A stretch of DNA of 64,000 bases from an uncultured bacterium (GTDB lineage: Bacteria; Omnitrophota; Omnitrophia; Omnitrophales; Abzuiibacteriaceae), in the NCBI GenBank assembly GCA_964387845.1, contig CAYLXA010000001.1, forward strand, positions 128,001 to 192,000, in the 5' to 3' direction. The position numbers and the translations under genes were made by a program. Numbering within the stretch: the stretch's first letter is position 1; every line of letters starts with the position of its first letter. Positions 3,818 to 58,845 of this stretch are shown piece by piece. A model generated the notes under the pieces. The model had not been told where the DNA came from. It searched no databases and worked only from the letters and a program-made list of their open reading frames with translations.

Positions 3818-3927
3818 AGTGGTTTAGCCTGCTTTCTTAAAAAGTGTTTAAATAGTACCATTTTACACCTAATATGGCAAGTTTATGACCCAATATTTAA
3901 TAATTACAGATAAAAATAGAAGGAAAA

Positions 3928-16297: not shown

Positions 16298-19200
16298 GTG
16301 ATGGACAATATGAAAAAGAGTACAAATTTTTTTGTACCTTTATTTAAATCTTTTCTAACTGGCTTACCAAAACGCGTTGTTACAGTTCTAGCCACTTTCT
16401 TCCTAGTCATTAACCAAGTCATTATTCCGGTTCCTAATTCCTTACTTCCCACGCTTAGCCCGGCAATCGCACAAGCTTCGGAAGATAACGGTACGACGGT
16501 GTCGATAGAAGCCTCCGGCGACGCTTATCTATCAAAGCAAAATCCGGATCAAAATTATGGCATTACGGATCTTATTACCGTAGACGGGCAAGACATTAAT
16601 GGAGACCCGAACACTGAGCTACGCGGACTGATCAAATGGAATCTTAGCCAATTGCCGGAAGGCAGTGTGGTCCAATCTGCCAGAATCATCCTTCATCTCG
16701 TCAACCACAGCGGCGGCAATGTTTATACCTTGCACAAATCTACGAAAGACTGGCACGAGGCGGATGTGACATGGAACAATGCAAGTGCCGACTTTGAATC
16801 AGCCTCTCTCGGCATACTGTCATCCAATATTTTAGGATTGCACAGCATCCCGTTGAATAGCGACGGAATTGCAGCCATTCAATCTTGGATCGATAATCCG
16901 GAAACCAATTTTGGATTTTTAATCCTCCCTGACGCAAACAGCACCAACGGCTTTGAATTTAAATCAAAAGATTCTTCTATTAAACCCGTCCTTGAAGTGA
17001 CAGTCACATTTCCTCAGGATGCTAGTTACAACGTTGAGATGTCAGTGAGTGGCGACGGCGCTATTTTCGTGAGCCCGGAACAGCCATTTGGATTTAACGA
17101 TAACGTTACGTTTACGGCGGAAGCCAACGATGGCTGGCAATTTGAAAGGTGGGAAGGCGATCTTGGCGGAGTGGAAAATCCGGCAACGATTCAAATTCAA
17201 AACAACATGAATGTGATGGCTGTTTTTCAATCTCTGGCTCCAGCTGAACCGCAAATGGGAATGTCGACTTGCGGTAACGGCGTGCTCGAAAATGGCGAAC
17301 AATGCGAGGGATCAAATCTGGGAGGTCAAAGCTGCTCAACTCTCGGGAACGGTTCAGGAACTCTTGTGTGTGCAAGCGACTGCACATTCAATATGGGCAG
17401 TTGCGCATTTGCGTGGCCGGCCGAGGCATTTGCATCAGCCGAAAACTTAACTTACATTGATTCTACCGGCTTTGGGGTTAATTTAAGCGGCGCCGCTTGG
17501 AATCCGGTATCACGAAAACTTTGGCTCGTTCGAAATGGCGGACCCGGCGGATCAAAATTGTGGGTATTGAGAGAAAATGGCAGCGGCGGATTTGAAGTTG
17601 ATTATAAAAATGGGCTGCGCGGTGAATGGTCCAATTTTAATGATTTAGAGGCTATTGCGCTGGCTGATTTTAATAATCCCGATGTGGTTTATTTATTAAT
17701 AGAAGGCGAAGAGCGCATTAAGAGATACAACATATCGACCTACGGCACGGCCATTCTTGAACGAAATTGGAACACAAGTCCGCATTTACCTTTAAATGGC
17801 GGGAGCGGCGCTGAAGCGCTTGCTTTTATTCCCGATTCATTTTTGACTGCGCAGGGCTTTGTAGATCCGGCCGGCAATCCGCGCACAAGTCAAAACGGAA
17901 TGGGCGGCTTGATGTTTGTCGGTCATCAAAACGGCGGACGGATTTATGTGTTCGACTTAAATCCTAATAATGACTCTTTCACCTATGTTGGCGCTTATCG
18001 AACAAACTATTCTGAAACTGCAGATCTGGCCTTTGATCGTTCAACCGGTTACTTGTATGTTTTTCATGGCGCCAATCATAATCATACTGAAGTGGTGTCT
18101 CTGGCTTCAACAGTAAACGGAAGTGAGCGAAAGCTTGTCACGCTGGTTGATTATAATCGCCCAACCGGAAGCGCAACAAACAGCAATATGGAAGGCATTG
18201 CGGTTGTTGAAACATCTGATTGTGCGGATGGAAAACGAGATTTCTTTTTGACGATTGATGACGGCGGCGCTGATTCCCTGTTCCGCTTCCGTAATTTTCC
18301 GTGCGGCTTGGCACGCAACAAAGCGCCTGTTGTGAATGCCGGATCCGATCAAACCATTACATTCCCGAACGCCGCTGCATTAAATGCAAGCGCATCCGAT
18401 GATCGTTTGCCCAATGGAACTATTACAACAACGTGGACACAAATTGGATTTGTGCCTGCGCCAGGTGTTTCCGGAAGCGGTGTCGCTACATTTGATGATT
18501 CAACCGCGTTAGCAACAAACGTTAACTTTGACTTGGCCGGCGATTACACGCTCCGCATGACAGTCACCGATGGCGAACTCTCAGCCGCGGACGATGTGAT
18601 TGTAACTGTCGATGAGGCAGCACGGCCTGTTACGTTTACCATTAATGCCTCGGCTGGATCTAACGGGTTTATTTCACCGATTGGAGAAGTTATTGTTGAT
18701 TCAGGCGCTAATCAAACATTCACAATCGCGCCAAATGCCAATTATCACATTGCCAATGTATTAGTAGACGGGGCTTCCGTAGGCGCGGTTTCAAGTTACA
18801 CATTTTCAAACGTAACGGCGAATCATACCATCGCGGCCAGTTTTGAAGTGAATACTTATACGATTGACTCCTCCGCGGGATCCAATGGTTCTATCTCACC
18901 CGCCGGTGTGACGACAGTGAATCATGGCGGTAGTCAAACCTTCACCATGACACCGAGCACAGGCTATCACGTAGCTGATGTGTTGGTGGATGGTGCATCA
19001 GTAGGTGCCGTGTCTAGCTATACCTTCAGCAATGTGACGGCTGATCATACGATTGAGGTGAGTTTTGCAGCAAGCAGTTTCACCATCACAGCTACAGCCG
19101 GCACTAATGGTTCTATCTCGCCAAGTGGTGATGTGGATGTTTCAGCCGGAGATGATCAGGTGTTTACGATAACGCCTAATTCTGGATTTCAAATTCAGAA

Positions 19201-22060
19201 CGTGACGGTTGATGGGCAGCCCGCAGGCGTTCTTTCAACCCATACATTTAGTAATGTCACCGCCAATCACACGATTCACGCTTCTTTTGTAGCAATAGAT
19301 CCTGTGAGAGATACCTACCTCCGGCAAAATACACCAACCACCAATTATGGAAGTGCAACCAGCGTCAATGTAGATGGCGATGAACCGGCAGGAACGGGAC
19401 ACGACGTGTTTGGTCTGTTGCGTTTTAACGTAGCACCTATTCCTGCTGGAAGCATCATTGATGCAATCGAATTAAGATTAAACATCACGAATGACACGCC
19501 GCACACTTACAGAATCTATGAAGTGAAGCGCCCTTGGTCTGAAGATCAGGCTACATGGAACCAAGCAGCAGCCGGTATGCCGTGGCAGGTTGCAGGCGCA
19601 AAAGGGGCCGAAGATCGTGGAGTAATTTTAGCAAATATAGGGCCTCTGGCTCTCGGACAACAGACCATTCTTTTGAATGACGCGGCTAAAAATATAATTC
19701 TCGGCTGGGCCAATAATCCTGCAAATAATCACGGCCTTATGATTGCAGACGAGGCAAGTACAAACGGTTTTGATTTTGCTTCCTTTGAATCGGCAACACC
19801 GCCACAACTCATTATCACCCATCGCCCAGGCTATACAATGACAACCAACGTCAATGGCAATGGGTCAGTATCAAAGAATCCGGATCAACAATATTACACA
19901 AATGGTTCAAATGTTACTTTAACCGCTAACGCAGGAGCCAACTCTGTATTCACCGGCTGGTCGGGTGACGCAACGGGAACCACCAACCCGCTTTCCGTTT
20001 CCATGAATAGCGATAAGAATATAACCGCTAACTTTACTATCAGAACCTATACACTCACGGCGTCAGCCGGTGCAAATGGTTCTATCTCACCCGCCGGCGT
20101 GACGACTGTCAATCATGGAGCGAGCCAGACTTACACCATGACACCGGCAACGGGTTATCACGTAGCCAATGTATTAGTAGACGGGGCTTCCGTAGGCGCG
20201 GTTTCAAGTTATACGTTTAGCAATGTCACAGCGGCTCACACGATCTCTGTCTCGTTTGCAATTAACACTTATACAGTCACCACCACGGCTACTTCAAACG
20301 GCACCATTTCTCTTTCGCCTAATCAAGCTTCGTATAATCATGGTTCAACGGTTACTGTGACCGCAACACCGAATAGCGGCTACACCTTCGCTAACTGGAC
20401 CGGTAGTCTCTCAGGTAGCGTGAACCCGGCCACACTCACGATGGACAGCAATAAAACCATCGGAGCGGTGTTCGCACAGATTCCGACGTTCACGATTACC
20501 CCGTCTGCGGGATTAAACGGTTCGATCTCTCCCGATACCATGGTCAATGTAATGGAAGGCGAGGATCAAACCTTCACCATCACGCCGGCGGCGGGTTATC
20601 ACATTGAAGATGTCTTGGTCGATGGCACCTCTGTTGGCGCAGTCGCAAGCTATACCTTCAGCAATGTGACGGCAAACCATACGATTGCAGCCAGTTTTGC
20701 GGTAAATACCTTCGCATTGTCGGCTTCTGTTTCAGGCAATGGCTCTATTTCAAAAAACCCGGACCAACCATACTACAACAACGGCTCTTCAGTGACTCTC
20801 ACTGCGAATGCAGGAGCTGATTCTGTATTCATCGGCTGGTCGGGCGATGCTTCAGGAACTGCTAATCCACTTTCGGTCACGATGAACGGCGATAAAAATA
20901 TTACGGCTAACTTTGCCGTTCGAACTTATTCATTGACCGCATCCGTTGAAGGAAGCGGCTCCATATCACCTTCAGGAGTTACATCGGTCAGCCACGGCGG
21001 GAGCCTAACTTACACGATAACCCCGGCAGCCGGTTATCGGATCCAATTTGTGAAAGTGGACGGCGTTTCGGTTGGCGCCGTTGAAAGCTATACGTTCAAT
21101 AACGTTACCGCCAACCATACGATTGCAGCAACTTTTTCAGTGAACACGTTCATTGTCTCTGCTTCTAACGGCAGTAACGGAAATATTTCACCCGTCGGAA
21201 ATACTCCGGTTAATGAGGGTGCTGATCAAACCTATGTGATTACTCCTGATTCAGGCTATGCTATTGAAGACGTGCGTGTAGACAATCAGTCGATGGGTGC
21301 AATTCCAAGCTACACCTTTAGTAATGTGACCGCCAATCACACAATTTCAGCAAGCTTCACCATGATTAGGCGCGCGTTAACCATTAGCACCAACCGCGGG
21401 CTTGGCGGAGCAGTCATTATCAATCCGGACAGCCCGGACGGCACTTATCTGCACGGCACGGAAGTAACCTTGACGGCTATTGCAAACCCCGGAAATATTT
21501 TCTCGGGATGGAGCGGAGACGCGGCGGGTTTGATTAATCCAGTCACAATCACCATGGACGCAGATAAAAATGTAACGGCTAATTTCAGCATGATCACTTA
21601 TTCGATAGAAGTTGAGACGACAACCGGCGGCGCGGTAGAAGTAAGCCCTGAAGGCCCACACTATTTGGGAGATGAAATTACACTGACAGCCACGCCGGAC
21701 TCAACTCACACCTTCAATGGATGGAGCGGCGACGTTACCGGTTCTGAAAATCCGATCTCAGTGACCGTAACGGGAAACATGAACATTGCGGCAAATTTTG
21801 CACCGATTACTTATACGCTCAATATAACCACAATCGGAAACGGAACCGTCACAAAAAGCCCGAATATGACGGATTACCCGGCAGGCACATCGGTAACCTT
21901 GACCGCGAACCCCGCGCGTTTCTGGAATTTTCTGCGCTGGACAGGAAACGCTTCGGGAACCAATCCGGTTATTACAGTTGTCATGGATGGCAACAAAAAC
22001 ATTCAGGCACGCTTTAAGCAGGGCCTAAGTCCATTCAGCGGCGGCGGCCCGGCATCGTAA
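16298..22060 (+). CDS. 1920-aa secreted/surface protein: two DNRLRE-type domains, a Cys-rich region, a beta-propeller-like region, a PKD domain and ~14 InlB-B-repeat-like domains
   Basis: N-terminal signal/anchor. The DNRLRE-like blocks are NTELRGLIKWNLSQLP...VTWNN and VFGLLRFNVAPIP...ATWNQ. The PKD-like block is APVVNAGSDQTITF. Many ~75-aa repeats have the pattern G..GS.SP.G..Y..G..VTLTA.P..G..F.GWSGD or ..GYH..DVLVDG..VGAV.SYTFSNVTANHTI. Confidence 0.85.
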   Translation: MMDNMKKSTNFFVPLFKSFLTGLPKRVVTVLATFFLVINQVIIPVPNSLLPTLSPAIAQASEDNGTTVSIEASGDAYLSKQNPDQNYGITDLITVDGQDINGDPNTELRGLIKWNLSQLPEGSVVQSARIILHLVNHSGGNVYTLHKSTKDWHEADVTWNNASADFESASLGILSSNILGLHSIPLNSDGIAAIQSWIDNPETNFGFLILPDANSTNGFEFKSKDSSIKPVLEVTVTFPQDASYNVEMSVSGDGAIFVSPEQPFGFNDNVTFTAEANDGWQFERWEGDLGGVENPATIQIQNNMNVMAVFQSLAPAEPQMGMSTCGNGVLENGEQCEGSNLGGQSCSTLGNGSGTLVCASDCTFNMGSCAFAWPAEAFASAENLTYIDSTGFGVNLSGAAWNPVSRKLWLVRNGGPGGSKLWVLRENGSGGFEVDYKNGLRGEWSNFNDLEAIALADFNNPDVVYLLIEGEERIKRYNISTYGTAILERNWNTSPHLPLNGGSGAEALAFIPDSFLTAQGFVDPAGNPRTSQNGMGGLMFVGHQNGGRIYVFDLNPNNDSFTYVGAYRTNYSETADLAFDRSTGYLYVFHGANHNHTEVVSLASTVNGSERKLVTLVDYNRPTGSATNSNMEGIAVVETSDCADGKRDFFLTIDDGGADSLFRFRNFPCGLARNKAPVVNAGSDQTITFPNAAALNASASDDRLPNGTITTTWTQIGFVPAPGVSGSGVATFDDSTALATNVNFDLAGDYTLRMTVTDGELSAADDVIVTVDEAARPVTFTINASAGSNGFISPIGEVIVDSGANQTFTIAPNANYHIANVLVDGASVGAVSSYTFSNVTANHTIAASFEVNTYTIDSSAGSNGSISPAGVTTVNHGGSQTFTMTPSTGYHVADVLVDGASVGAVSSYTFSNVTADHTIEVSFAASSFTITATAGTNGSISPSGDVDVSAGDDQVFTITPNSGFQIQNVTVDGQPAGVLSTHTFSNVTANHTIHASFVAIDPVRDTYLRQNTPTTNYGSATSVNVDGDEPAGTGHDVFGLLRFNVAPIPAGSIIDAIELRLNITNDTPHTYRIYEVKRPWSEDQATWNQAAAGMPWQVAGAKGAEDRGVILANIGPLALGQQTILLNDAAKNIILGWANNPANNHGLMIADEASTNGFDFASFESATPPQLIITHRPGYTMTTNVNGNGSVSKNPDQQYYTNGSNVTLTANAGANSVFTGWSGDATGTTNPLSVSMNSDKNITANFTIRTYTLTASAGANGSISPAGVTTVNHGASQTYTMTPATGYHVANVLVDGASVGAVSSYTFSNVTAAHTISVSFAINTYTVTTTATSNGTISLSPNQASYNHGSTVTVTATPNSGYTFANWTGSLSGSVNPATLTMDSNKTIGAVFAQIPTFTITPSAGLNGSISPDTMVNVMEGEDQTFTITPAAGYHIEDVLVDGTSVGAVASYTFSNVTANHTIAASFAVNTFALSASVSGNGSISKNPDQPYYNNGSSVTLTANAGADSVFIGWSGDASGTANPLSVTMNGDKNITANFAVRTYSLTASVEGSGSISPSGVTSVSHGGSLTYTITPAAGYRIQFVKVDGVSVGAVESYTFNNVTANHTIAATFSVNTFIVSASNGSNGNISPVGNTPVNEGADQTYVITPDSGYAIEDVRVDNQSMGAIPSYTFSNVTANHTISASFTMIRRALTISTNRGLGGAVIINPDSPDGTYLHGTEVTLTAIANPGNIFSGWSGDAAGLINPVTITMDADKNVTANFSMITYSIEVETTTGGAVEVSPEGPHYLGDEITLTATPDSTHTFNGWSGDVTGSENPISVTVTGNMNIAANFAPITYTLNITTIGNGTVTKSPNMTDYPAGTSVTLTANPARFWNFLRWTGNASGTNPVITVVMDGNKNIQARFKQGLSPFSGGGPAS

Positions 22061-27437: not shown

Positions 27438-27662
27438 ATATTATTTTACGGCCATACATACTGTGTGTTTTACGGAAAGTATTCACCTGACATTTTCGAT
27501 TAAATCTGCTAAGCTTTCCACTTAAATTTATATTTTTCTTTCTCTAAGGGTCGGGTTGGGATAAGTGAGACAAATGTTGATTGGTTTTGCCGAACAATCC
27601 CGAATTAATTTTAAAGTATTTGTTCAGCTCTTTTTCAATTCGAGAAGTCAAGTAGGGATAGT

Positions 27663-27685
27663 CACGGCATTCTTTTCATGCCGTG
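27663..27685. other. 8-bp stem hairpin CACGGCAT-tcttttc-ATGCCGTG
   Basis: Perfect inverted repeat read from the sequence. It lies between the nrfH promoter region and tRNA-Pro. Confidence 0.4.
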
Positions 27686-27725
27686 CAATCCCGAATTGGC
27701 TTCACAATATTTGATCAAACCAATT

Positions 27726-27799
27726 CGGGACGTGGCTCAGCCTGGTAGAGCGCACGCTTGGGGTGCGTGAGGTCCCGGGTTCGAATCCCGGCGTCCCGA
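27726..27799 (+). tRNA. tRNA-Pro (anticodon GGG)
   Basis: Cloverleaf: acceptor CGGGACG/CGTCCCG, D-arm GCTC..GAGC, anticodon stem CACGC/GCGTG with loop TTGGGGT, T-arm CCGGG-TTCGAAT-CCCGG, discriminator A. CCA is not encoded. Confidence 0.85.
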
Positions 27800-27977
27800 T
27801 ACTCCGCTACATTAAAAAGACACAAACATTTATTCATCAAAGCAGAGCATCGCCCTGAGGAGCGTTTTGTGCGACGAAGGGCTGCCCGCGTATCGGGACA
27901 ATGTTTTATGTGGTTCAACACTCACGCCAATGCGTGAGTGCGATGCTATCGCGACTCAAAGATAGCCGCGTACCGCA

Positions 27978-27995
27978 TCGATCCCGGCGTCCCGA
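27978..27995 (+). repeat. direct repeat of the tRNA-Pro 3' end (att-like scar)
   Basis: tcgATCCCGGCGTCCCGA repeats 27781..27799 (tcgaATCCCGGCGTCCCGA), ~180 bp downstream of the tRNA. Confidence 0.6.
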
Positions 27996-28207
27996 CCATT
28001 TAGTATATGTCCGTACCGGAGACGCGGGTTACATCATCTTCGGTGTAAACGAGTACTGTAAGTGCTGAGACATGGCTTGTCACATGTCGTTTTTTATTGT
28101 AATCGGGACTGAGGAGCTTGCGAGACGCTGCAATAAAATCTGCTTTGAATTCGCGAAGCTAAAGCCAGCCCGTTTACATCTCGCTTTTCCCGTCGGTTCA
28201 TATTAAA

Positions 28208-29848
28208 ATGCCTTTCATGAAATTTTTAAAAGTTTTCTCTTTTTTTCTTCTATTTAATGTTATTTCATTTTCTCTCAATGTTGGCGCCGATTCAATTCCG
28301 GACTTATTTCAAAATTACTCCGCCCCTCATTTTAAAGCTCCAGATTATTTAACTTACTCCGAGCTTGTCCGATTCTCTGAAAATCCAAAGCCAACCAAGG
28401 AATTAGAGAAAAAGCTTGATGCCATTCTCCGCACTCCATTTGTTAGCAACGAAGCATTTTATGAAGGAAAGCGTCCTCATCGTCCTTCGCGCGCCGATTT
28501 TGGGCCGTACTTACGCGCGGTTTCATGGAACATTGAAAAATCATACCGGATTCCGGAAGCTATCACCGCGTTTACAAGCGCAACTGGCTACGTAGAACTT
28601 ATCAATCAAAAAAAATTTCCACCGGGATCCAAGAAGTTTCACCGGGCTTTCGTCGAAAGAGATTTATTGAAAGAAGTGGATCTTGCGATTCTGCAGGAGA
28701 TGGAAGTGGGTATTAAGCGTTCGGGTTATCGTGATGCAGCGCGGGAAATGGCGCAAGCAATGGGAATGAATTACGCTTATGCCGTGCAGTATTTGGAGGT
28801 GGATCCCGTGCAGCTTGGCAAAGAAAGAATCTATTATGAGGAAGGTGGTGTTGATACGGAGCTGGAAGAATATTACCGGGTGGATCCAGAAAAATATAAA
28901 GGACTTTTCGGCTCAGCCGTTTTGTCGCGTTATCCGATTAAGTTTGTAGAAGTCATTCCTCTGAAAAATCAAGGTTACGATTGGTATCGCCAGGAGAAAA
29001 ATAAGACCACGTTCTTAGAGAAAGCCAGGCGCTTTGGCGCCAAAACCGTCTTTCTAAGTCATATGCACCGCGAAATAAAACTGGGCGGCCGCCATTATTT
29101 CCGCGTGGATTTGCACGTGCCCGGGCTTCCGAATGATACGCTCACTGTGATTAACATTCACCTAGAGATCAAATGTTTGCCCAAGGCACGCGAAGAGCAG
29201 ATGAGAGAAATTTTATCTTATATGGAGAAAATCAATAATCCCGTCATCATGGCTGGCGATTTTAATTCAGCGCCGTCTGATTTATCGCCTACTTCAACCA
29301 TTCGTGTGATTAAAAGAACGGCGACTGACCCGGAATTTTGGCTTTCGGTTGCGATTCGAGTAGCGCTTCAAGAAGCTCTTTTGATTAATGGCCTGCGTTC
29401 TATTTCTAATATCACTAAGAATTATCAAAATCCTCCCGCCATACATATCCCGTGGATTATGCCAAACAAAGTGAGGGGGCTTTTTAAAACCATCCGCGAT
29501 TTTCGATTTGAAGACGGAGGTGCTTTTGATTTTCGAGGCGATCCAGAGCGTTCGGCTAACGATCACGGTTATTTATCTAATTCCAACGAAATGGATTTTT
29601 GGAAGTATAAAGTCACGTTCCGCACACGAAGAACCATTGCACATTTGGTCGGCAAATTCCGGCTCGATTGGGTATTCGTGAAAGCATTTCTGAAGGAACC
29701 GTTTGATAAGAGCGGTTCTTATCGTTTTGCGCCTCACTTCGGTAGAACGCTCAATCATTTCAACGATGTTTTGCGCACACGCATTTCTGATCATGATCCT
29801 AACGTAGTCGATTTATTTTTTGAGGAACCATTACGGGTTACGCTTTAA
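28208..29848 (+). CDS. secreted endonuclease/exonuclease/phosphatase (EEP) family protein
   Basis: Signal peptide. EEP-type blocks (VSWNIEK, MAGDFNSAPSD, ISDHDP). 546 aa. Confidence 0.65.
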   Translation: MPFMKFLKVFSFFLLFNVISFSLNVGADSIPDLFQNYSAPHFKAPDYLTYSELVRFSENPKPTKELEKKLDAILRTPFVSNEAFYEGKRPHRPSRADFGPYLRAVSWNIEKSYRIPEAITAFTSATGYVELINQKKFPPGSKKFHRAFVERDLLKEVDLAILQEMEVGIKRSGYRDAAREMAQAMGMNYAYAVQYLEVDPVQLGKERIYYEEGGVDTELEEYYRVDPEKYKGLFGSAVLSRYPIKFVEVIPLKNQGYDWYRQEKNKTTFLEKARRFGAKTVFLSHMHREIKLGGRHYFRVDLHVPGLPNDTLTVINIHLEIKCLPKAREEQMREILSYMEKINNPVIMAGDFNSAPSDLSPTSTIRVIKRTATDPEFWLSVAIRVALQEALLINGLRSISNITKNYQNPPAIHIPWIMPNKVRGLFKTIRDFRFEDGGAFDFRGDPERSANDHGYLSNSNEMDFWKYKVTFRTRRTIAHLVGKFRLDWVFVKAFLKEPFDKSGSYRFAPHFGRTLNHFNDVLRTRISDHDPNVVDLFFEEPLRVTL

Positions 29849-35932: not shown

Positions 35933-38900
35933 TTAGGCTTTGATGATGAGTTCGTGCGCATTTTGGAATTCTGCTCTTAACTCGCTTGAAAACTTGACGA
36001 TATTGAACAATCCTCTGATATCGTCGGCAGAACTTTCATCATCAATAACGCCGCGGTTTTTCATAGCAAGCGCAATCCCCCGGTCCTCTTTTAAGCCAAG
36101 CGCCTGGATAAAACCAACCTGTAGCTTCTTTTTTAAATAATGCGCCGCCTGATCGGGATATTGAAACACTTTCATTCGTTCATCGGCTTGAAAAGAAACG
36201 GCCGCGGCTCCGTCCGAAACCACCGCGACTTCATAACCTTGCGCTTTATAGTAACGCACAAGAAGCGGTGTCACGGTGCCCGCTTCGCGCGTTAAAATAT
36301 CCATCAAAATTACGCCGCGCTTTAAATGGAGATCTTGATTCGAGTCGCCGCTGATTTCAAACGTTCGGTTTAAATAATTTCTAAGTTCCGGCGTTAAAAA
36401 CAACCCCGGATCCGCATCGATTTGCCGCGCGGCTTCTCGCACGCTTGATTCCATAGTTTCTATATGCATCTCGAGCCCGTCAAACGGGTTTAGATGATCA
36501 AATCTTAACTCGGACTTGGCGCCATCACCTTTAACCAAGTAAGTGTAAATTTTCTGAAATTCATGTTCATAGCTTTCGGTAAATTTTTCTTCTTTCTCGG
36601 CCACGCGGCGATAATATTCCGAAGCTTGTCCGGTAACATACTGCCACAAGGTAAAATTTGTCTGATTTTGTTTATTAAAATCAGCCAACTGCTCTGCGTC
36701 TATTTCACCTTGCGCCTCTCCCTGGTGGCGTAGAAAAATCGGTATCTCCGGCCCTAGAAAAACTTCGGGAAAAAGCGCGGCAATTTGCCTGACGATGCTT
36801 AGGAAATCTTGGGACGGATCATTGTCTAAATTCTCTGAAATATCCTGAAGAATTTCTCGGTAGGCTTCCAAACCGAAGGCGTCCACTGGAAAATCATTTT
36901 GCTTAAAAAACTCAGCCCCGTGCGAGGCCGCTGTCTTATTCGGAACAAACAAAAGGCCATTGATCAGCGCGGAACCGTACTCCAATATTTTCTGCCTATT
37001 TTGAACAGGATCTTTTAGAAATTCTTTTAATGAAGGCAAAAACCCTTTGATTAAAATGGGCATCAATTGAATATCCAGTTCATCTGTCCCGATACGGTGA
37101 TCATGCCTTAAGTGCGGGCCCAGGATTCCGAATAAAAGAGCTGCTCCTTGCGCGGATTTTTGCGCAAGCGCCGCAGCGTTATCAAGAAAGACTTGGTCAT
37201 TGTCAGCAAATGACAAAAGTTTTTTAAGCAGCAGGCCGTCAGGTTCGGGAATTACATCATTCAAACGGCCGTCTTCATGCCCCCGCAGTTCGGAACGGTT
37301 TTCAATGGTAATCAAAACCTCTTCCTGTGCGGGGTTTTTGGTTGGAATCACCCTGACCTTAAATTCAAGTGATTCTGAAGCATCGTTCAATACAAATGTC
37401 CCGTAATCGGAACCGGCGCGCTGCCGTTCGATGGCAACATCTTTTGCTATTAACTTCACCAATGTAAAAAAGTGAAGCGCATTTCCGGCAGGTTTGGCAG
37501 TGAAATGCCTGGCAGAAATCTTGCTGTCTGAATCTTTAGACACGATTACGGTAACAACAGCACCGTTACGAATCAACCGCACAGATTTTGCCTGCTTCAA
37601 TTTGAAAACGGGTTTCAGCACATAAGATTGAACCAATTTTGAATAAGGAAGCGGTGTTTCATGGTTGGATGCGATTGACAATAAAAATCGGCCTTGATCC
37701 CGGTTCATGATCCAGAGTGCAAATTGCGCGCCCTTAAGCTCCAACCGTTCCCTTTCGGTCATCGTGCGGCTTTGGGTCAAGCGCTTCATATCCAACTTAT
37801 CAAAGCGCTCCAAGAGCCCATGGAACTTTCCGGGGTCGAGCAGCTCATCCGCGTCAACCTCGGAAAGCACAAGAAGAGTCAGTAAGTGGCCAAGCTGTCT
37901 AAATAACGGGCTTTTATCTCTAAAGTCCTCGAAAAGATTCTTCGCATCTTCAAGCAGGCTGCGGACTTCATCATAGGCAAGGCCAGATGCTGTCAAATAT
38001 CGCATTTTGCCCACCGCGCGCAAAAATTGCCCCTCTTGATCCATGGTTAATCCGACTTTATTTTCGGTTTCTGGATCATCCGGATTGATAATTTCGATGG
38101 GGTCAAGGCCTTCGCGGAAATCTTCCTCTAAAAATTTCTTCAATTCATCCGAACGTTTTCCCATTTCGATTAAAAGCTGGGATAACGCCCTTAATTCGGA
38201 ACGCTGCCCTCCGGCAGAGCCGTTTTGTGCATTATTGCGCTTCTTATAATTTGACACTTCAATAGACAAATCATTGATTTCATTGGCTAACGCTTCAACT
38301 TTAAAAATAAGCTTTCGATTTGGATTTTTTGGATCGGCGAGAATGAACGAGCCGATTTGATCAACATTTCCCCGGTTAATATCGATCTGCTGCGTAAAAA
38401 ATTGCAGTAAGGTTAAAAAATAAAACGCGTCTTGCTTTTCTAATTTGAACTTTTCAGATTTTATGACGTCGCGCTGTGCGTCTGAATCCAGATAGTAAAT
38501 TTCGACTGTATTTGTCTTTTGAACACGTTTGATTTTAATGAAGCCAATATCATCCTCTTTAAATGCCGGGTCTATGATCATTTGCTTTAATAACTGGCCA
38601 ACCTGAAACTGCCTGATCGCCAAATGAATAAAGCGGCCTTGATACTGTCTCATGCCGGCCAACAAGTATTTTGCCGCTGCCGCGATCAGCTTGTCCATCG
38701 GGTCCAGCGGCTGTCCGTTCCGTTCGGAATAATGAAATCTCATAGCTAAGCTGACCAGTTCGTGAAATATGTCGGTTTGAAAATATGTGTTGAGCTTTTC
38801 GGGCGTTCTTGCTAATTCGGTTTGAATTGTTTCGAGCTCACTTCGAAAACCATCGGCTACACTAATGTAGTGATAAGTACCCGCCGCAGAAATAGCTTGT

Positions 38901-41900
38901 GTCAAAAGCTGGTCGAAGCGCCGGTTGTGAACCAGATAAAATAGCGGCGGATAGGCACCATGCTCCAAATCAACTTGGCCAACCACATAGTCAAAGAAAT
39001 CTTTGACTGCTTTTTTTGCATCATTGTTGCCGAGCCGCATCATCACACTGTCTTTTTGCTTGACTAGTCTCTGCGTCAACAATTCTTCAATTTCAAATAA
39101 GCGCTGGCCCATCTCGGCCAAGTCGATTTCCAGTTTGCTCCATCCGCTATTTCCGATATCGCCCGATTTGGTTCGGAGTTCGGATCTTTCCGCAGGTTGT
39201 TTTTGATTATCAAACTCGGCGGTCAATTTAAACGATCTAGCATGTTCGGCGTCGAATGCTTCGAGCATCGGGTCGGCGTATTCGAAAAGCCAGCTAAAAT
39301 CTTTTTCTGCCTCGGGAGTTTTAAAACCAAAGTCTTCTGTAAAAATAGAGAAATCAACCTCAGGCCGGCCGCTCAATAAAAATGTAAGACTAAGCGGATT
39401 TTCTATCTCACGATTACCGTTGATTTCGTCCAGCCATGCTTGAAATAATGCGGCTAGGCGTATTTTCCTTTTATCCAAACTGCCGTCCGGACGCATGATA
39501 TGCCTTAAATTCTTCAGTTCGTTTGCAACCGCTTCGCGCCGCTCTTCGTCTGAAAATGATTGAATATAATCATCAAAGTTGCCGGGTGGCCCGATCTCCT
39601 TCAGAACTGCTTCTGCCAATACTACGAATTGCTCATAATGAGGCTGGGTGGCATACACAACATAACGCCGAAACCAATCCTTCATTTTGGGATCTTGATA
39701 ATAATCAAGAAGCCTTTTCATCGAAGGATCCTTTTGAGCCGACTCATAAAATGTCTCCCCTTTAAGGATCATCTTCCTGTTCAGGTCTTGGTCGAATCGA
39801 TAGCTGCCGTCCGGCTGTATCGCCAAACTAATATTGTTGCGGTGAATCTGCCGATATTTTTTAAATTGCACTGCCCGGGGATTATTCGTTTTTTCGGGAT
39901 AATGAATGAATTTTGCCACATTAATAAAGTACCGAATATTCATCAGCCGGAATTTTCTGGGAAGCCAAGCTGTATAATCATAATCGATGGCAGCCAAGGC
40001 ACTGTTGGGTTCGTCCTTAGATTGCGGCGCCTTCATCAGAACAATTTCAAAGGGTTTCAGCAAAGACCGCCCGTTCAGAGTCACTTCATTGCCGATTGCC
40101 AAACGGGACCCTTTGCTAATCAAACTGATAAATTCCCGGATCAAATTGCGATCCTCTTCGGTTTCGGCATATTTCAGATCTTGATCCAGGATAAAGCGAA
40201 GTTCTTCCGCCAGTCTGTCCATTTTCTCCGAATTCCCCGGCGGAACCCGGAGCGCAAACTGATCAAGCTTGCTGAAGCCAATAGACAAATCGACTGGATC
40301 ATACGGAACTTGCGGTGCCGGATCTTCAAATAGGCGATATTGCAAATCCCGCTTAAACCACCGGACAACGGGGAAATAATAAAATAATGCGGCAATCATC
40401 GATAGCACAGACCCAAAAACCGAGGCCCAAACTATCCGCTTCTTCAGAATTTGCCGTTTTGCATGCTTAAGCCGCTTCTGGCGCTCAAGCAGATTATTCA
40501 AAGCTTGTTTAGCAAGTGAAACGATGTGATGATCGCTATCCTCCGGGCCGAATTCAAACTGAATAACTTGCCCGCGCTTTGTTTCAAGTGCCGCGTATCC
40601 GGATTTTCCATTCTCAGGCAAAAGCACAAACGGTTTTTCCCATGGCCCATGGAAAACAAACGGCTCTTCGTTCGGTAATCTGAGAATCAATTTCTCAATC
40701 TCCCCGGGCCGTTCGGCTTGGCGCCTTTCTTCATCCAATCGTTGTTCGTTATTCCGCCAATCCCTTTTTATTTGCTGAACTTTTCCTAACGCGTCCGCCC
40801 TTTTGGCAGCCGTGGTCTCATCATCATGGAGCACATTTTGGTATTCTGTGTGGCCGAACAGTTTTGTCAGCAAATGATCACGGGATTGAGCGGTCGGAAG
40901 GCCATAAACAACCTCCGCCACGTGAAGCACTCCGCTTTCAATTGCGCTCCGGAGCGAATTTAACTTTGATGGCGTAGCATCAAGCTCTTTTCCTCTCGCC
41001 GGAATTAGATGAAACGGCAAATGACTTTTCCCGGAATCTAAGAATAAACTGATAGATCGTAGTTTTTTTCCGTTTAATTCAATTTCTTTTTTAAAGTTAA
41101 TTTGAATAGTTGATGGCTTGCCAGAATGATCCACGATGATTCGAGTGTGGCTGGAAAAATCGTTCGCCACACCGATAATTGTGTCGGCTATTTCTTTTTC
41201 AGGAACGAGCGGCCGAAAACCTAAATGAGTCCATATTTGAATAATACGTGGATCACGACTTTCGCCTTCTAATTTTAGAACGCTTCCGTTCTTAGACGAT
41301 AATTGATTCTGTGCTATGAATTCGATTTTGCCGTGAAGTTTATGATTCAACCTCGTTGGGTCTATGGTTTCAAGCCGCACCACTTCAGTGCTTGCGCGAA
41401 GCTCTGATCGCGGCGTAGTTTGATTAGTTGCAATTCTGGTAAAGACGAGATAATGCCAATAGCGCCCTGATTTGTAAAAAGCCGGGATGGCGCGCGATCC
41501 TGTAGAACTTTGCCATTCTTCAGGATGAATAAATTCGCGAAATGCTTTTAATATGGAATCGCCCGCTCCATCAAAATCGAACTCTAGCTCGTCAAAGGGG
41601 TACTCAAAAGTAATTTGGCCGCCCTCCGGAATCCTGGCAATTAACTGCCGAAACCACTCTTGCGAGAGCGAATCGACGTAGCGGTCGATATTTCCAAAAC
41701 GGACATGACGATAAGCCGGCTCTTGAAATAACAAGGCGGGATCCCGGATATCAACCCGGCGGATTTCTATTTGGTCACCGAGACGTAAGAATTTTTTGGC
41801 TCGTTTCGAAAAAGCCTCCACGAAAAACGAGCGGTCTGAGAAAATAAAATGATCATCACCGCTGATTTGTTTAAAAAAGTTCACGGCGTTGGTTCCTGAA

Positions 41901-44900
41901 GCCAGATCCAAAACCGGCAGTCTTCTTAATTTTGGATCATTTGAGTTCAAATAAACCGGCACTTCGTCGTCAAAATGTTTCGCCGAAAATGCCATCACGG
42001 CTGCAAACTCGCCTAACTTCTGCAAAAATAATCTTGCTTCGGGTAAATTTTCAAGATAAGCACGCTCCGAAAATTGAATGACTCTCTCTAATTCATCGTA
42101 AATATATTCAAAATCAGAAAACATTGGAAGCGATCGCACAACTTCCGGCCAAAACGTATCAAAATTCAAATAGTAATGATATTGAAATATCATTTGAGCC
42201 AAATATCCGTTGGCTTGCCGAAGGATTCGGCCACGCAAATCTTTGTAATCCTCGATTCCGAACTTTTCTAAAAGCTCGGTGGGCCACGGCTTTGAAACTC
42301 TACGGCTGCTGATTTGATGAAAAACGTGCAAGCTCAAAAACCCGACGGTAGAAGCAACTACAACCGGCCACATCAAGCTACGAAGCTCAGAACGAATCCA
42401 TTTATCCGATAAGTCATGCTGGATTTCGCGGAACTGTTCGCGCCATTGAATCAGCTCGGCGTTTCGTTTGCGTGCATCATCCGCAATTGCTTGAAGCGGT
42501 TTTGGCACCATGCTTTGAACATAATATTGAATATCCAATTGAGCAAACCAGTTCCCAAAACGATATCTTTCACCATCCGGAATTTGACTCAGGTTAAAGT
42601 TTTCATGTTTTAATTTGGAAATAGCGAGCTGCCCTGCCAAGCGAGTCGATAAAGCTCCTGAAAAATAAAGCTGGAGCAACTTTGTTAAATGAAAAAAGTA
42701 AACAAAGTTAAGCCCATTGTTGCCAAATAAAACAGGGTCAAATGCAAACGCATCCTCTCCGCCTTTTTCAGGCCTAAAGTAGAGATCGATTAAGTTCGAA
42801 TTAAAAGAAGCATCTTTGACGTGGGTTATTCCGATTTCCCGCCATATACGCACATCCAGATCACCAATTCCCAACGCGTGGCGTAAACTTCCAAATAAAT
42901 AAACTCGCGGATATAAATCCGATTCAGAATAGCTTTCTTTAGCGCGTACAAAATCGAGTGCCTTTTTCAACTCATCAACCAAAAGAATTGAATTTTGAAA
43001 ATGTTCTAAATTAGTATAAGGATGCGTCAGGTGAAAATACAGCCGATGAAGCATATTGTGGACAAAACTCACGCCATTGATTTCTTCAAAAAGCCGGAGA
43101 TCTGCGGGAAGCACTCTTAGGCGTGGAGACTTTTCTTTGTTCCAACTGCGGATCAGCTGTTCAATCTCAGAATTGATTTGGATGTAGTTTTCTGATGCGC
43201 CCGATTCGAGATCTGGTTTGGCTAGGTCTTTTGATAACTGGAATAACTGATCCTCCATCGACATAATTTTCATGAAAAAATCAAAATCATCATCTGTTAA
43301 AGATCTATGGATGCTTTTCTGAATTTGCTTCAGAAAATAAATCGTATTGTCGAGGAGAATTTTGTGCGCTGCATCCTGCGGTATGTCAAAATGATCGAAC
43401 ATTTTTTGCGCCATTTTTTCAGCGGTTGGATAGAAAAGCGGCTGACCCAATTCATTCATTCTGAGTTCAGAACGGCGAGCAGTCTTCAAGAAACCTGATG
43501 CACCTGCCAACACTTTGCCTGCTTCAGGTAAACTTAATCTTCGAAGGAGCAATGGTTTCACGTTCTTCGCGGCTTTTCGTCTAGCGACTAAATACAAGAC
43601 ACCTTCAAATTCGGTTGCCGCCTCTTTTAAAGTCAGTTCTCGAAGCGGTCCGTCAATACCGTACTTTTCCCAACTCGCGCTTCGGCTTAAGGGGAGGCCA
43701 AAAACCTGAACGTCGATGTTTCGCCGTCTGAAGAGATTGACTAATTCGGCATTTGTCTTGACGCCGCGCGGATTAAGGCTGGATTTGGTTGCGTAAAGCA
43801 GTACGGAATTTTGAACAACGACCGAAGCGCCCGGGCTCATATTTGCCAAAACTTCTCCCGCAACTTTTTGAGCATCAACGTAATTCAATAAATTTGAAAT
43901 GACAATGGTGTCAAATTGAGAATATAAATGCGGCGGACTTAGCTGAGAAGAAGGCTTGCCCTCACGAAGAACCAAATCGATTGCATGGCGATCCTCCGGG
44001 CTCATACTCTCGATCCGCTCAACATCCGCCCGCACAGTCAAAACGTTACCCTTCTGCTCAATATCCTTGGGTGGGCGGAGAGCAAGCGCCACGATTTTTT
44101 TCTTTGGATACATTACAGCTGACAAAGGATTGCCCCCATCCCCCAATTCTAAAATTCGATCCCCTAAACCGCCGGATCGTTCTAACGCTGAGAAAACAGT
44201 TGCTAAATCGCCTCGAAATGTGACATCTTCGTCCCTATAAAAATTCCGCCATAGAAATTCACGGCCGAGATTGGTCAATTCCAGCTCAGAGGTCTTGCCC
44301 ACCACACTGCCTTGAAACACGGACGACAAAGACACAGCCGCTCGATTGCCGTCCTGCATCTGTAAACTTAAATTTCCCTCAAAAGAAGAAGCGTGGATGG
44401 TTATTTTGATTGTTTTTTTATTCTCATCGTCAAATTCCAGAAAATAACTTTCGCTCAAACTTCCTCCGGTTGCGATTTTTTTCGAAAAAGGTTTTTCCTT
44501 GGTATAAAAAGAAATGTTTTTTTGAATCAGGCGGACAAATTTCTGTACTTCTTCCGGCACATCACCGATGGTTTTGAGATCACCTGTTTTAAAAGTTCCC
44601 TCGGCCGAGCCAACAAAAACGAAACCGGTTTCATACTGCGTAAAAAACTGAAATCGCGAGGCCTTCTCTGCCTGAGTTTCATTGGGAACTACTCGAATGT
44701 TGTACCAATCGCCGCTGACAGGATGATAAACCAATAATAAAAATCCATGGCCATTTAATTCGTCTGCAAAAAATAAGTCGCCAATTCTTGGGTTCTGTGG
44801 ATCGGGCTTTCTTCTGCTTTCAAAACTGCCCAAATAGCCGGCGGCCTGCAGGCGCGCTATCAGACGAATGGCGGCAGGGCTAAATGTTTCGCTTTGTTCG

Positions 44901-45286
44901 CGCAATCTTTCATCGGATAGGGCCCTAAAAATAAATTGACGCTTGTCGGTTCTTCGCCGGTAACGCGCAATAGAAAAGTCTTTTAAAAATTCATCAGCCG
45001 TGAGCGCTTTGCCGTTATATTTTTTAAGAAATCTGGAAAGTCTTTCAACGTCTTTCTTTAAAATGGAAATCCGCGAAGCCTGGTTTGCCAGCGCGCTTGT
45101 CCGCAATTCAGAACGGACAATAGCCGGATTTAAGTTCCGGAAGGAACGGCTCTTTAAATAACTTGCGGCTTTTTGAAAGAAGGCGGTGGCAGACGGAATA
45201 TCACTGTACGCAATGGTGCTTGTGAAGGTAAAACTCAGCAGGGTTGTGAGGGCAATGGTTTTGAATAAAGCGGACTTTAATTTCAC
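35933..45286 (-). CDS. 3117-aa giant secreted/membrane protein with seven RSELR/KSELR motifs and two Rossmann/methyltransferase-like motif-I regions
   Basis: Single uninterrupted ORF. Signal peptide MKLKSALFKTIALTTLLSFTFTSTIAYS. Two central hydrophobic helices (LMWPVVVASTVGFLSLHVF; IVWASVFGSVLSMIAALFYYFPVV). ILELGDGGNP and VLDLASGTNAV resemble SAM-MTase motif I. Confidence 0.85.
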   Translation of the reverse strand: MKLKSALFKTIALTTLLSFTFTSTIAYSDIPSATAFFQKAASYLKSRSFRNLNPAIVRSELRTSALANQASRISILKKDVERLSRFLKKYNGKALTADEFLKDFSIARYRRRTDKRQFIFRALSDERLREQSETFSPAAIRLIARLQAAGYLGSFESRRKPDPQNPRIGDLFFADELNGHGFLLLVYHPVSGDWYNIRVVPNETQAEKASRFQFFTQYETGFVFVGSAEGTFKTGDLKTIGDVPEEVQKFVRLIQKNISFYTKEKPFSKKIATGGSLSESYFLEFDDENKKTIKITIHASSFEGNLSLQMQDGNRAAVSLSSVFQGSVVGKTSELELTNLGREFLWRNFYRDEDVTFRGDLATVFSALERSGGLGDRILELGDGGNPLSAVMYPKKKIVALALRPPKDIEQKGNVLTVRADVERIESMSPEDRHAIDLVLREGKPSSQLSPPHLYSQFDTIVISNLLNYVDAQKVAGEVLANMSPGASVVVQNSVLLYATKSSLNPRGVKTNAELVNLFRRRNIDVQVFGLPLSRSASWEKYGIDGPLRELTLKEAATEFEGVLYLVARRKAAKNVKPLLLRRLSLPEAGKVLAGASGFLKTARRSELRMNELGQPLFYPTAEKMAQKMFDHFDIPQDAAHKILLDNTIYFLKQIQKSIHRSLTDDDFDFFMKIMSMEDQLFQLSKDLAKPDLESGASENYIQINSEIEQLIRSWNKEKSPRLRVLPADLRLFEEINGVSFVHNMLHRLYFHLTHPYTNLEHFQNSILLVDELKKALDFVRAKESYSESDLYPRVYLFGSLRHALGIGDLDVRIWREIGITHVKDASFNSNLIDLYFRPEKGGEDAFAFDPVLFGNNGLNFVYFFHLTKLLQLYFSGALSTRLAGQLAISKLKHENFNLSQIPDGERYRFGNWFAQLDIQYYVQSMVPKPLQAIADDARKRNAELIQWREQFREIQHDLSDKWIRSELRSLMWPVVVASTVGFLSLHVFHQISSRRVSKPWPTELLEKFGIEDYKDLRGRILRQANGYLAQMIFQYHYYLNFDTFWPEVVRSLPMFSDFEYIYDELERVIQFSERAYLENLPEARLFLQKLGEFAAVMAFSAKHFDDEVPVYLNSNDPKLRRLPVLDLASGTNAVNFFKQISGDDHFIFSDRSFFVEAFSKRAKKFLRLGDQIEIRRVDIRDPALLFQEPAYRHVRFGNIDRYVDSLSQEWFRQLIARIPEGGQITFEYPFDELEFDFDGAGDSILKAFREFIHPEEWQSSTGSRAIPAFYKSGRYWHYLVFTRIATNQTTPRSELRASTEVVRLETIDPTRLNHKLHGKIEFIAQNQLSSKNGSVLKLEGESRDPRIIQIWTHLGFRPLVPEKEIADTIIGVANDFSSHTRIIVDHSGKPSTIQINFKKEIELNGKKLRSISLFLDSGKSHLPFHLIPARGKELDATPSKLNSLRSAIESGVLHVAEVVYGLPTAQSRDHLLTKLFGHTEYQNVLHDDETTAAKRADALGKVQQIKRDWRNNEQRLDEERRQAERPGEIEKLILRLPNEEPFVFHGPWEKPFVLLPENGKSGYAALETKRGQVIQFEFGPEDSDHHIVSLAKQALNNLLERQKRLKHAKRQILKKRIVWASVFGSVLSMIAALFYYFPVVRWFKRDLQYRLFEDPAPQVPYDPVDLSIGFSKLDQFALRVPPGNSEKMDRLAEELRFILDQDLKYAETEEDRNLIREFISLISKGSRLAIGNEVTLNGRSLLKPFEIVLMKAPQSKDEPNSALAAIDYDYTAWLPRKFRLMNIRYFINVAKFIHYPEKTNNPRAVQFKKYRQIHRNNISLAIQPDGSYRFDQDLNRKMILKGETFYESAQKDPSMKRLLDYYQDPKMKDWFRRYVVYATQPHYEQFVVLAEAVLKEIGPPGNFDDYIQSFSDEERREAVANELKNLRHIMRPDGSLDKRKIRLAALFQAWLDEINGNREIENPLSLTFLLSGRPEVDFSIFTEDFGFKTPEAEKDFSWLFEYADPMLEAFDAEHARSFKLTAEFDNQKQPAERSELRTKSGDIGNSGWSKLEIDLAEMGQRLFEIEELLTQRLVKQKDSVMMRLGNNDAKKAVKDFFDYVVGQVDLEHGAYPPLFYLVHNRRFDQLLTQAISAAGTYHYISVADGFRSELETIQTELARTPEKLNTYFQTDIFHELVSLAMRFHYSERNGQPLDPMDKLIAAAAKYLLAGMRQYQGRFIHLAIRQFQVGQLLKQMIIDPAFKEDDIGFIKIKRVQKTNTVEIYYLDSDAQRDVIKSEKFKLEKQDAFYFLTLLQFFTQQIDINRGNVDQIGSFILADPKNPNRKLIFKVEALANEINDLSIEVSNYKKRNNAQNGSAGGQRSELRALSQLLIEMGKRSDELKKFLEEDFREGLDPIEIINPDDPETENKVGLTMDQEGQFLRAVGKMRYLTASGLAYDEVRSLLEDAKNLFEDFRDKSPLFRQLGHLLTLLVLSEVDADELLDPGKFHGLLERFDKLDMKRLTQSRTMTERERLELKGAQFALWIMNRDQGRFLLSIASNHETPLPYSKLVQSYVLKPVFKLKQAKSVRLIRNGAVVTVIVSKDSDSKISARHFTAKPAGNALHFFTLVKLIAKDVAIERQRAGSDYGTFVLNDASESLEFKVRVIPTKNPAQEEVLITIENRSELRGHEDGRLNDVIPEPDGLLLKKLLSFADNDQVFLDNAAALAQKSAQGAALLFGILGPHLRHDHRIGTDELDIQLMPILIKGFLPSLKEFLKDPVQNRQKILEYGSALINGLLFVPNKTAASHGAEFFKQNDFPVDAFGLEAYREILQDISENLDNDPSQDFLSIVRQIAALFPEVFLGPEIPIFLRHQGEAQGEIDAEQLADFNKQNQTNFTLWQYVTGQASEYYRRVAEKEEKFTESYEHEFQKIYTYLVKGDGAKSELRFDHLNPFDGLEMHIETMESSVREAARQIDADPGLFLTPELRNYLNRTFEISGDSNQDLHLKRGVILMDILTREAGTVTPLLVRYYKAQGYEVAVVSDGAAAVSFQADERMKVFQYPDQAAHYLKKKLQVGFIQALGLKEDRGIALAMKNRGVIDDESSADDIRGLFNIVKFSSELRAEFQNAHELIIKA

Positions 45287-58749: not shown

Positions 58750-58820
58750 ATTGATAACAACTCTATTTGATACAAATACTTAGAAGTCTGCGGGCCGCCG
58801 CCAAAGGTGGCGAGCCTCGC

Positions 58821-58845
58821 CAATTTTTGCAGAGCAAAAATTGGC
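58821..58845 (-). terminator. 10-bp hairpin CCAATTTTTG-cagag-CAAAAATTGG at/after the tRNA-Asp 3' end
   Basis: Perfect inverted repeat that partly includes the CCA end. A second short GC hairpin (ggcgagcctcgcc) follows. Confidence 0.45.

Follow-up and report, generated by a model that had tools for sequence, protein, structure and literature searches.

The second copy of the tRNA-Pro(GGG) 3' end in a 64-kb stretch of an uncultured Omnitrophota genome (assembly GCA_964387845.1, contig CAYLXA010000001.1, positions 128,001 to 192,000; hereafter, the window) forms the 3' arm of a hairpin in which both acceptor-stem strands of this tRNA are reproduced. Other Omnitrophota carry hairpins with matching ends, and together these constitute a family of small, non-coding, tRNA-Pro-acceptor-like elements that are gained and lost beside tRNA-Pro(GGG). 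We give about an even chance to the reading that the repeat in the window is the junction of a ~196-bp cassette without open reading frames (ORFs), at 27800-27995, that entered through recombination within the core at the tRNA 3' end.

A repeated tRNA 3' end is routinely taken as the trace of a large integrated island. In this case it is part of a family of tiny hairpin cassettes, with copies of both acceptor-stem strands, that are gained, lost and shuffled at a single tRNA gene of a poorly known phylum. Were a dedicated recombinase to act on the hairpins, they would represent a novel type of attachment site whose structural target is a tRNA stem, and the recombinase would also explain the differences between close relatives in the 3' flank and encoded CCA of tRNA-Pro. 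If the hairpins are RNA elements instead, they would be mimics of the tRNA-Pro acceptor. Under either reading, island finders that require an integrase and a length of at least 2 kb will miss these cassettes. In full-text literature searches on Omnitrophota tRNAs, repeats and hairpins, and on the sublocations of attachment (att) sites within tRNA genes (tDNA), we found no description of such elements.

The tRNA-Pro repeat and the hairpin that contains it

The tRNA-Pro(GGG) gene occupies 27726-27799 on the forward strand (ARAGORN; Rfam tRNA, 66.1 bits, full length) and encodes no CCA, the next bases being TAC. Its end, which spans the T-loop, the 3' strand of the T-stem and the 3' strand of the acceptor stem up to A73 (tcgaATCCCGGCGTCCCGA, 27781-27799, forward strand), recurs in direct orientation as tcgATCCCGGCGTCCCGA at 27978-27995. 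The original prediction had described this repeat, and its strings and coordinates are correct, with an exact shared block of 15 nt (ATCCCGGCGTCCCGA, 27785-27799 and 27981-27995); the tcg before the 15-mer also matches if one base is deleted, for a total of 18 nt with one indel. A check for further copies returned only these two matches to the 15-mer in the window, even with two mismatches allowed. Shuffled sequence contained a mean of 0.09 matches and reached two in 1 of 100 shuffles; the repeat is real and beyond chance.

Identity between the copies starts inside the T-loop (TTCGA|ATCCC), a canonical att sublocation. The distal copy is followed by CCA (27996-27998) and TTT, the tRNA copy by TAC. 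CCA is encoded by the tRNA-Asp of the same window and, in a metagenome scan, by 112 of 117 tRNA-Pro(GGG) genes with the same acceptor stem. The sequences 3' of the two copies are unrelated; only 15-18 nt are duplicated, and there is no repeated unit. The 181-nt interval between the copies holds no credible ORF. It is not random debris: it contains the complementary 5' acceptor strand and folds into a hairpin whose design recurs in five other loci. TCGGGAC, which is the tRNA-Pro 5' acceptor strand plus its -1 T, appears again at 27893-27899 and 28103-28109, and 5 of the 12 TCGGGAC/GTCCCGA sites in the 64 kb (both strands) fall within 27725-28109.

The first of these TCGGGAC copies opens hairpin element 1 (27893-27998, forward strand), a 103-nt hairpin at 27893-27995 followed by the CCA at 27996-27998. 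It starts 88 nt upstream of the distal repeat and closes the fold: TCGGGAC at 27893-27899 pairs with GTCCCGA at 27989-27995 in an outer 7-bp helix. An unpaired A at position 7 faces C, and a second 7-bp helix (27908-27914/27972-27978) and two hairpins (27919-27927/27932-27940 and 27945-27950/27961-27966) follow. The predicted RNA fold has a free energy of -42.2 kcal/mol (z -3.1), and the DNA fold a z-score of -3.4. The whole trailer at 27800-28110 is also unusually structured (z -3.3). One inner stem, CACTCACGC/GCGTGAGTG, contains the tRNA anticodon-stem sequence CACGC/GCGTG, but resemblance to the tRNA is limited to this stem and the acceptor helix; no T stem can be drawn. We rejected element 1 as a tRNA or pseudo-tRNA, as the pseudogene, intron, tmRNA and mitochondrial modes of ARAGORN found nothing at 27893-27998. 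It also has no Rfam family: a scan of the locus at E-values up to 10 matched only the true tRNA, and a scan of the whole window returned two tRNAs only.

Upstream of element 1, the putative cassette begins with a 93-nt spacer (27800-27892, forward strand). Its start, TACTCC, resembles the flank GTCCCGA|TTACTCC of a related hairpin in locus L263 (see below), and the spacer has no similarity to the other loci beyond short motifs. On the other side, the flank of the distal copy, CGTCCCGACCATTT, matches that of a hairpin, C, in locus L057 at 14 of 14 nt.

Related hairpins and flank exchange in other Omnitrophota

Hairpins with the same ends (TCGGGAC[A/T]G...GTCCCGA) are present in five other Omnitrophota loci, four from metagenome-assembled genomes and one on a metagenome contig. 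They were identified with a motif-plus-fold scan rather than a covariance model because indels in the arms make an alignment of eight to nine divergent hairpins unreliable. Members are 47-105 nt long, with DNA-fold z-scores of -2.2 to -8.3, and share one topology: an outer 5-7 bp helix of TCGGGAC and GTCCCGA, an unpaired A or T at position 7, and a self-complementary inner helix. The inner helix differs from copy to copy (for example CCCAACTT, CATGGT, CATCAC, CTCCGGCA, CCGCTGAA, GCAGGACA and CATTGATCC); GTAATCGGGAC is a candidate conserved flanking motif. Only three of about nine members end in CCA. The same scan found no family hairpin in 128 other loci (720 kb), a set that includes the 117 metagenome tRNA-Pro(GGG) genes with an identical acceptor stem, whose source organisms were not identified. 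Among these 117 genes, which also have the same anticodon arm, none has its last 8 nt repeated in the 1.5 kb that follow it; the one exception, locus L099, came from an 11-mer scan. Rfam (E-values up to 1) matched only true tRNAs in the five related loci.

The most elaborate arrangement occurs in Omnitrophica RIFCSPLOWO2_01_FULL_45_10b (L057), where four more copies of the last 10 nt of tRNA-Pro (GCCGTCCCGA) lie within 420 nt downstream of the gene. Three of the four close hairpins that start with TCGGG(A)C[A/T]G, for a count of three or four family elements at this locus, and the region has a fold z-score of -7.7. With gpsA, the glycerol-3-phosphate dehydrogenase gene upstream of tRNA-Pro in this lineage, as an anchor for fetching relatives, we recovered eight loci in which the gpsA-tRNA-Pro order is kept. 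Two of these carry elements. L263 (GpsA 86% identical to L057) has one hairpin upstream of tRNA-Pro(GGG), in inverted orientation, and L273 (85%) has a tRNA-Pro(GGG) with CCA followed by two hairpins. No elements accompany tRNA-Pro(GGG) in L266, L269 and L271 (GpsA 85-87%) or in L277, L280 and L282 (77-79%). An additional inverted-order hairpin, GTCGTCCCAGGAGGCCCGAAGGGCCGACGTGGGAC, with the part resembling the 3' strand placed first, lies between the two hairpin elements of L273 (3300-3345), and the L057 stretch GGTCGCCCCCGAACGAAG is related to it.

The remaining two loci have no tRNA on their contigs. L036 carries one hairpin and a second copy of its 5' arm, and L001 carries two tandem, identical 47-nt perfect hairpins (TCGGGACAGTCATTGATCC...) that are 80 nt apart (5881-6019). 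The L001 pair lies at the very end of a 6-kb contig, ~700 nt downstream of a gene of the endonuclease/exonuclease/phosphatase (EEP) family, and the assembly probably broke inside a longer tandem array.

Between genomes, homology ends precisely where the tRNA 3' end is repeated. The 46 nt that start at the L057 tRNA 3' end (GCCGTCCCGA TTTTTATTAATAAAAAG...AATCTGGACTG) are 87% identical to the 46 nt that start at the 3' arm of L273 hairpin m2, whereas no homology exists on the left side of GCCGTCCCGA, where one has a T arm and the other a hairpin arm. Similarly, the 3' arm and flank of L057 hairpin B (GCCGTCCCGAGATT...) match the tRNA end and flank of L263 and L269 over 14 of 14 nt and beyond, and the match extends into the 5' arm of the next hairpin. 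Three types of right flank (CCA[T/A]TT, TTTT[T]ATT and GATT) are spread over tRNAs and hairpins in different genomes. Such flank exchange is what recombination at an att-like core would be expected to produce, and it explains why the tRNA-Pro gene of one genome is followed by CCA while its relatives lack it. The data show that the family clusters at tRNA-Pro, that its members are gained and lost between relatives, and that the breakpoints fall at the core.

Gene content shifts at the same place. While gpsA is fixed upstream in L057 and its eight relatives (L263, L266, L269, L271, L273, L277, L280 and L282), the gene just downstream of tRNA-Pro(GGG) differs from one to the next and includes a Ysc84-like gene, a GDSL lipase, Usp, a long ORF, ResB, AbiEii and a response regulator. 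The 3' side of tRNA-Pro(GGG) is a rearrangement hotspot. No integrase was seen in any of the fetched flanks of these loci.

Proposed cassette insertion and its alternatives

We propose that the repeat in the window formed when a donor cassette, carrying a hairpin 3' arm followed by TAC, recombined with the tRNA gene within the shared core between the T-loop and A73. The tRNA would have been regenerated from the cassette copy, hence its present position before TAC, and the other copy, with CCA and its flank, would have been displaced 196 nt downstream. The empty-site junction would then read tRNA...GGCGTCCCGA|CCATTTAG (GTCCCGA|CCATTT), and the junction of a circle or tandem would read ...GGCGTCCCGA|TACTCCGC (GTCCCGA|TACTCC). 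Elements would accumulate on both sides of tRNA-Pro(GGG), direct when downstream and inverted when upstream. This layout fits the strand of GTCCCGA, which is the forward one at the 3' end of the gene and the reverse one at its 5' end, and the upstream element of L263 is arranged like the hairpin at 27655-27692 of the window. We infer that a recombinase encoded elsewhere carries out the exchange in a site-specific manner, as opposed to slippage or short-homology recombination, and that the window copy, by analogy with the L057 lineage, arose by insertion.

Several results weigh against this reading. The evidence for mobility is restricted to the L057 lineage and carried over to the window by analogy, and the window hairpin has its termini and topology in common with the family but not its interior. 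The collections contained no relative of the window genome near enough to reveal an empty or otherwise occupied site. No integrase or transposase was detected by Pfam among 23 of the 44 window ORFs, which returned housekeeping families only; nor was a recombinase, integrase or transposase present among eight ORFs that flank the elements in L036, L057 and L273. IMG/VR viral contigs yielded no attP or donor form. In addition, slippage deletion between the 10-nt direct repeats could yield the same flank exchanges with no site-specific enzyme. Finally, element 1 has the orientation of the tRNA, an ACCA end and a terminator-like hairpin after it, all of which fit a role at the RNA level.

A more specific version of the proposal is one that we consider quite unlikely. 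The acceptor stem of tRNA-Pro(GGG), as folded single-stranded DNA, would be the attachment structure that the short hairpins, with their conserved unpaired base, mimic. A recombinase whose gene lies elsewhere would insert, shuffle and delete ORF-less cassettes to either side of the tRNA, in an integron- or CTX-like mechanism acting on a new site. Some cassettes would then bring an encoded CCA, or a new 3' flank or terminator, to the tRNA gene. The use of folded single-stranded DNA as the substrate is conjecture.

The original prediction interpreted the repeat as an att-like scar, most simply the remnant of a lost element or a very small cargo. Its att-like part is supported by the direct repeat from the T-loop, the CCA on the distal copy only and the breakpoints at the core in other genomes; the loss of an island found no direct support. 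In that scenario, an integrase-borne island or prophage would have integrated at the T-loop/3' end of tRNA-Pro, and a deletion would have left ~180 bp between attL and attR. A textbook small case does occur at the same tRNA species in L099 (Ga0081539_10004684, 1-1150), where the 3' half of tRNA-Pro(GGG), from the anticodon stem, is repeated together with a terminator hairpin 882 nt downstream; the repeats bracket two small ORFs resembling the antitoxin and toxin of an addiction module, and no integrase. The varying gene content downstream of tRNA-Pro, including an AbiEii gene that adjoins the tRNA in L280, is also consistent with islands, and partial tRNAs are known as scattered remnants in tycheposon islands (10.1101/2020.12.28.424599). 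However, the complementary 5' acceptor strand is placed where it closes a hairpin, and five other loci share this design (50-105 nt), two of them on contigs without a tRNA. Neither an integrase remnant among the tested ORFs, nor an occupied tRNA-Pro site with an island, nor a viral attP was found, and the locus fails the Islander filters for an integrase and a length of at least 2 kb (PMC4383910). We therefore regard an island scar as unlikely.

Slightly less probable still is that element 1 is a functional structured RNA processed from the tRNA-Pro transcript, a minihelix or trailer whose acceptor-like stem and ACCA would be recognised by tRNA-processing enzymes, for example RNase P or those that trim the 3' end and add CCA. 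In that case, the match to the tRNA end would reflect maintenance by selection or gene conversion and not an insertion. The shared strand, the 7-bp acceptor-like helix with T at -1 and an ACCA 3' end, the stable folds of element (z -3.1) and trailer (27800-28110, z -3.3), and the terminator-like hairpin at 28069-28098 all agree with such a role, as do inner helices that vary across the family yet keep their pairing. There is also a precedent in the Escherichia coli rtT/RttR RNA from the tyrT-distal repeats, each of which ends in the 3' 19-mer of tRNA-Tyr. An RNA role accounts less well for the scarcity of CCA ends in the family, for inverted upstream members (L263 and possibly 27655-27692 of the window), for L036 and L001 with no tRNA, and for unpaired flank motifs such as GTAATCGGGACTG that are kept between distant genomes and that structure alone does not explain. 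Element 1 lacks a T-arm and is assigned neither to a tRNA or pseudo-tRNA nor to an Rfam family, and the elements are missing from close relatives and therefore dispensable.

Local duplication without mobility, through unequal crossing-over or replication slippage at the tRNA gene followed by drift, appears very unlikely. Its best parallel is the tyrT-tyrV locus of E. coli, for whose 178-bp repeats an origin by unequal crossing-over or slippage has been proposed. In E. coli K-12 (NC_000913.3), the last 19 nt of tRNA-Tyr, from the T-loop, recur every 178 nt downstream of tyrV in the annotated rttR/tpr region, a spacing close to the 196 nt here, and each unit contains GGGGAAGGAT, which is complementary to the repeated tRNA end. 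Both systems involve a tRNA 3' end repeated on the same strand, at ~180-nt spacing, within the tRNA transcription unit. They differ in that the whole 178-bp unit is tandem and near-identical in E. coli, while in Omnitrophota only the tRNA-derived ends are common and the interiors are unrelated. In the window, only 15-18 nt are repeated and the sequences that follow are unrelated; moreover, the hairpin design appears in unrelated positions and genomes with conserved flanking motifs. As a separate observation on E. coli (L285, NC_000913.3 1286200-1288200), the GGGGAAGGAT of each 178-bp unit complements ATCCTTCCCC of the tRNA-Tyr 19-mer, and the tyrV-distal units could, judging from sequence, also pair an internal segment with their tRNA-derived end.

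Comparison with known systems and genomic context

Islands and prophages that tyrosine integrases insert at tDNA att sites share several features with the window and its family: an intact tRNA gene with a displaced 3'-end copy in the same orientation, identity from the T-loop, homology that breaks at the repeat, and arrays of repeats at one tRNA. The T-loop class of tDNA att sites includes, for example, that of mycobacteriophage Ms6 (PMC1762012). On the other hand, the window unit is ~200 bp long and ORF-less, with no integrase in the tested ORFs, and the Islander filters require an integrase gene between tRNA and fragment and a length of at least 2 kb (PMC4383910). Furthermore, the hairpin whose 3' arm is the displaced copy also holds the tRNA 5' acceptor strand, and members of the family also occur upstream in inverted orientation and at sites without a tRNA. 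The feature acts like an att repeat but is outside the class of tRNA-integrated islands as operationally defined.

The hairpins also recall the attC sites of integrons and the folded attP of CTX phage, being imperfect palindromes of ~50-105 nt in which the inverted cores at the ends are conserved, as is an unpaired base in the stem, and the interior varies but remains paired; they also form arrays and exchange flanks at the core. Integron attC sites are palindromes of 55-140 nt with the R' core GTTRRRY and intI and attI as neighbours. Here, in contrast, the core is GTCCCGA rather than GTTRRRY or dif-like, the cassettes are ORF-less, and there is no intI or attI nearby and no recombinase among the tested ORFs of the window, L036, L057 and L273. 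REP/REPIN sequences and MITE-like elements are similar as short, intergenic, non-coding hairpins with conserved ends that are sporadic among relatives and sometimes tandem (as in L001). They differ in that the interiors of our elements vary within one genome and that no GTAG-type REP head or target-site duplication is evident. As for REPs specifically, whose many genome-wide copies have a conserved head that a REP-associated tyrosine transposase (RAYT) recognises, no RAYT was found in the tested window ORFs, and the elements are only around tRNA-Pro in the 64 kb.

The search of IMG/VR viral contigs with the 15-mer gave 64 matches, none of them in a tRNA and none continuing ...CCCGATAC; most are coincidences within coding sequence on GC-rich contigs. 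Two candidates were rejected. The CGGGACA/TGTCCCG palindromes of L214, considered as an attP, belong to a cluster of GTCCCG(G) iterons adjoining a phage gene. L276, the sole match to the hairpin consensus, is a GC-rich contig with GTCCCGAC iterons beside a primase/helicase-like ORF and is probably an origin. Both regions (L214 2200-2360 and L276 840-1140) feature dense GTCCCG(A/G)/CGGGAC iterons in both orientations around an AT-rich spacer; these clusters resemble origins or packaging sites, have no relation to the Omnitrophota elements and account for the database matches.

Within the window, the elements are confined to 27650-28172, and several further structures accompany element 1. Downstream, a hairpin and T run resembling an intrinsic terminator (28069-28098, forward strand) may mark where a tRNA-Pro transcription unit containing element 1 stops; with one such site against 1.1 expected from shuffles, it is weak alone. 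A degenerate second hairpin, TCGGGACTG...CAGCCCG, is tentatively placed at 28103-28172 (forward strand; DNA fold z -0.9, not significant). Its 5' motif, the 13-mer GTAATCGGGACTG (window 28099), is common to L273, L263 and L036, and a weak second unit, ending in this hairpin, may follow the cassette at 27996-28172.

Upstream, an inverted hairpin lies at 27655-27692 (reverse strand; DNA fold z -5.45; repeats I3/I4 and D1), with an outer GGGAT/ATCCC helix, one unpaired T and an inner helix of 8-9 bp. Its 5' arm, CCAATTCGGGAT, copies the tRNA leader and 5' end (CCAATTCGGGAC), and it likely belongs to the tRNA-Pro hairpin family. An overlapping 11-bp hairpin (27689-27730, forward strand; z -5.5; repeat I3) pairs TCCCGAATTGG with CCAATTCGGGA, the latter being the tRNA-Pro leader plus the first five tRNA bases. 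The same region contains a 39-nt direct repeat (27588-27626 and 27679-27717, 77% identical, 91 nt apart), both copies of which include AATCCCGAATT, the complement of the tRNA leader and 5' end. The second copy is part of both upstream hairpins; the region of the first (27548-27608) has no significant fold.

The first gene downstream is an EEP family gene (28208-29848, forward strand), conserved and relevant here as context only. Its ATG at 28208 is 408 nt from the tRNA end, and an earlier estimate of 400 gene-free bp was about right. The original prediction asked whether this gene is part of the variable region. It is not cargo: it is conserved across Omnitrophota and is located downstream of tRNA-Pro(GGG) in two other lineages, L018 and L057 (2.6 and 3.4 kb, same strand, with different intervening genes). 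We recovered 898 EEP homologues, of which those with names are Omnitrophica or Omnitrophota, and 77 related loci. The only identical protein is from the same organism, the next best homologue is 59-60% identical, and Logan contig L078 is identical to the window over the tRNA-Pro/EEP intergenic region. We disregarded an apparent association of hairpins with EEP genes (window, L036 and L001), as the EEP gene was the bait through which most loci had been retrieved.

Other neighbours are housekeeping genes, namely nrfHA, a 2-hydroxyacid dehydrogenase gene, rfb genes, type IV pilus genes and ruvB; the integrase that the original prediction had proposed to look for was not among the tested ORFs. Three window ORFs are very large: one on the reverse strand at 1-3824 that runs off the left end (at least 1274 aa), and two at 16298-22060 and 35933-45286 (1920 and 3117 aa, respectively). 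The tRNA-Asp gene has no acceptor-stem copy next to it, and a second copy of its 3' end, at 17797-17806, falls within a coding region and was taken as chance. Its encoded CCA is part of an 11-bp hairpin, CCAATTTTTGC/GCAAAAATTGG, that lies directly after the gene (58800-58845, reverse strand) and is probably a terminator.

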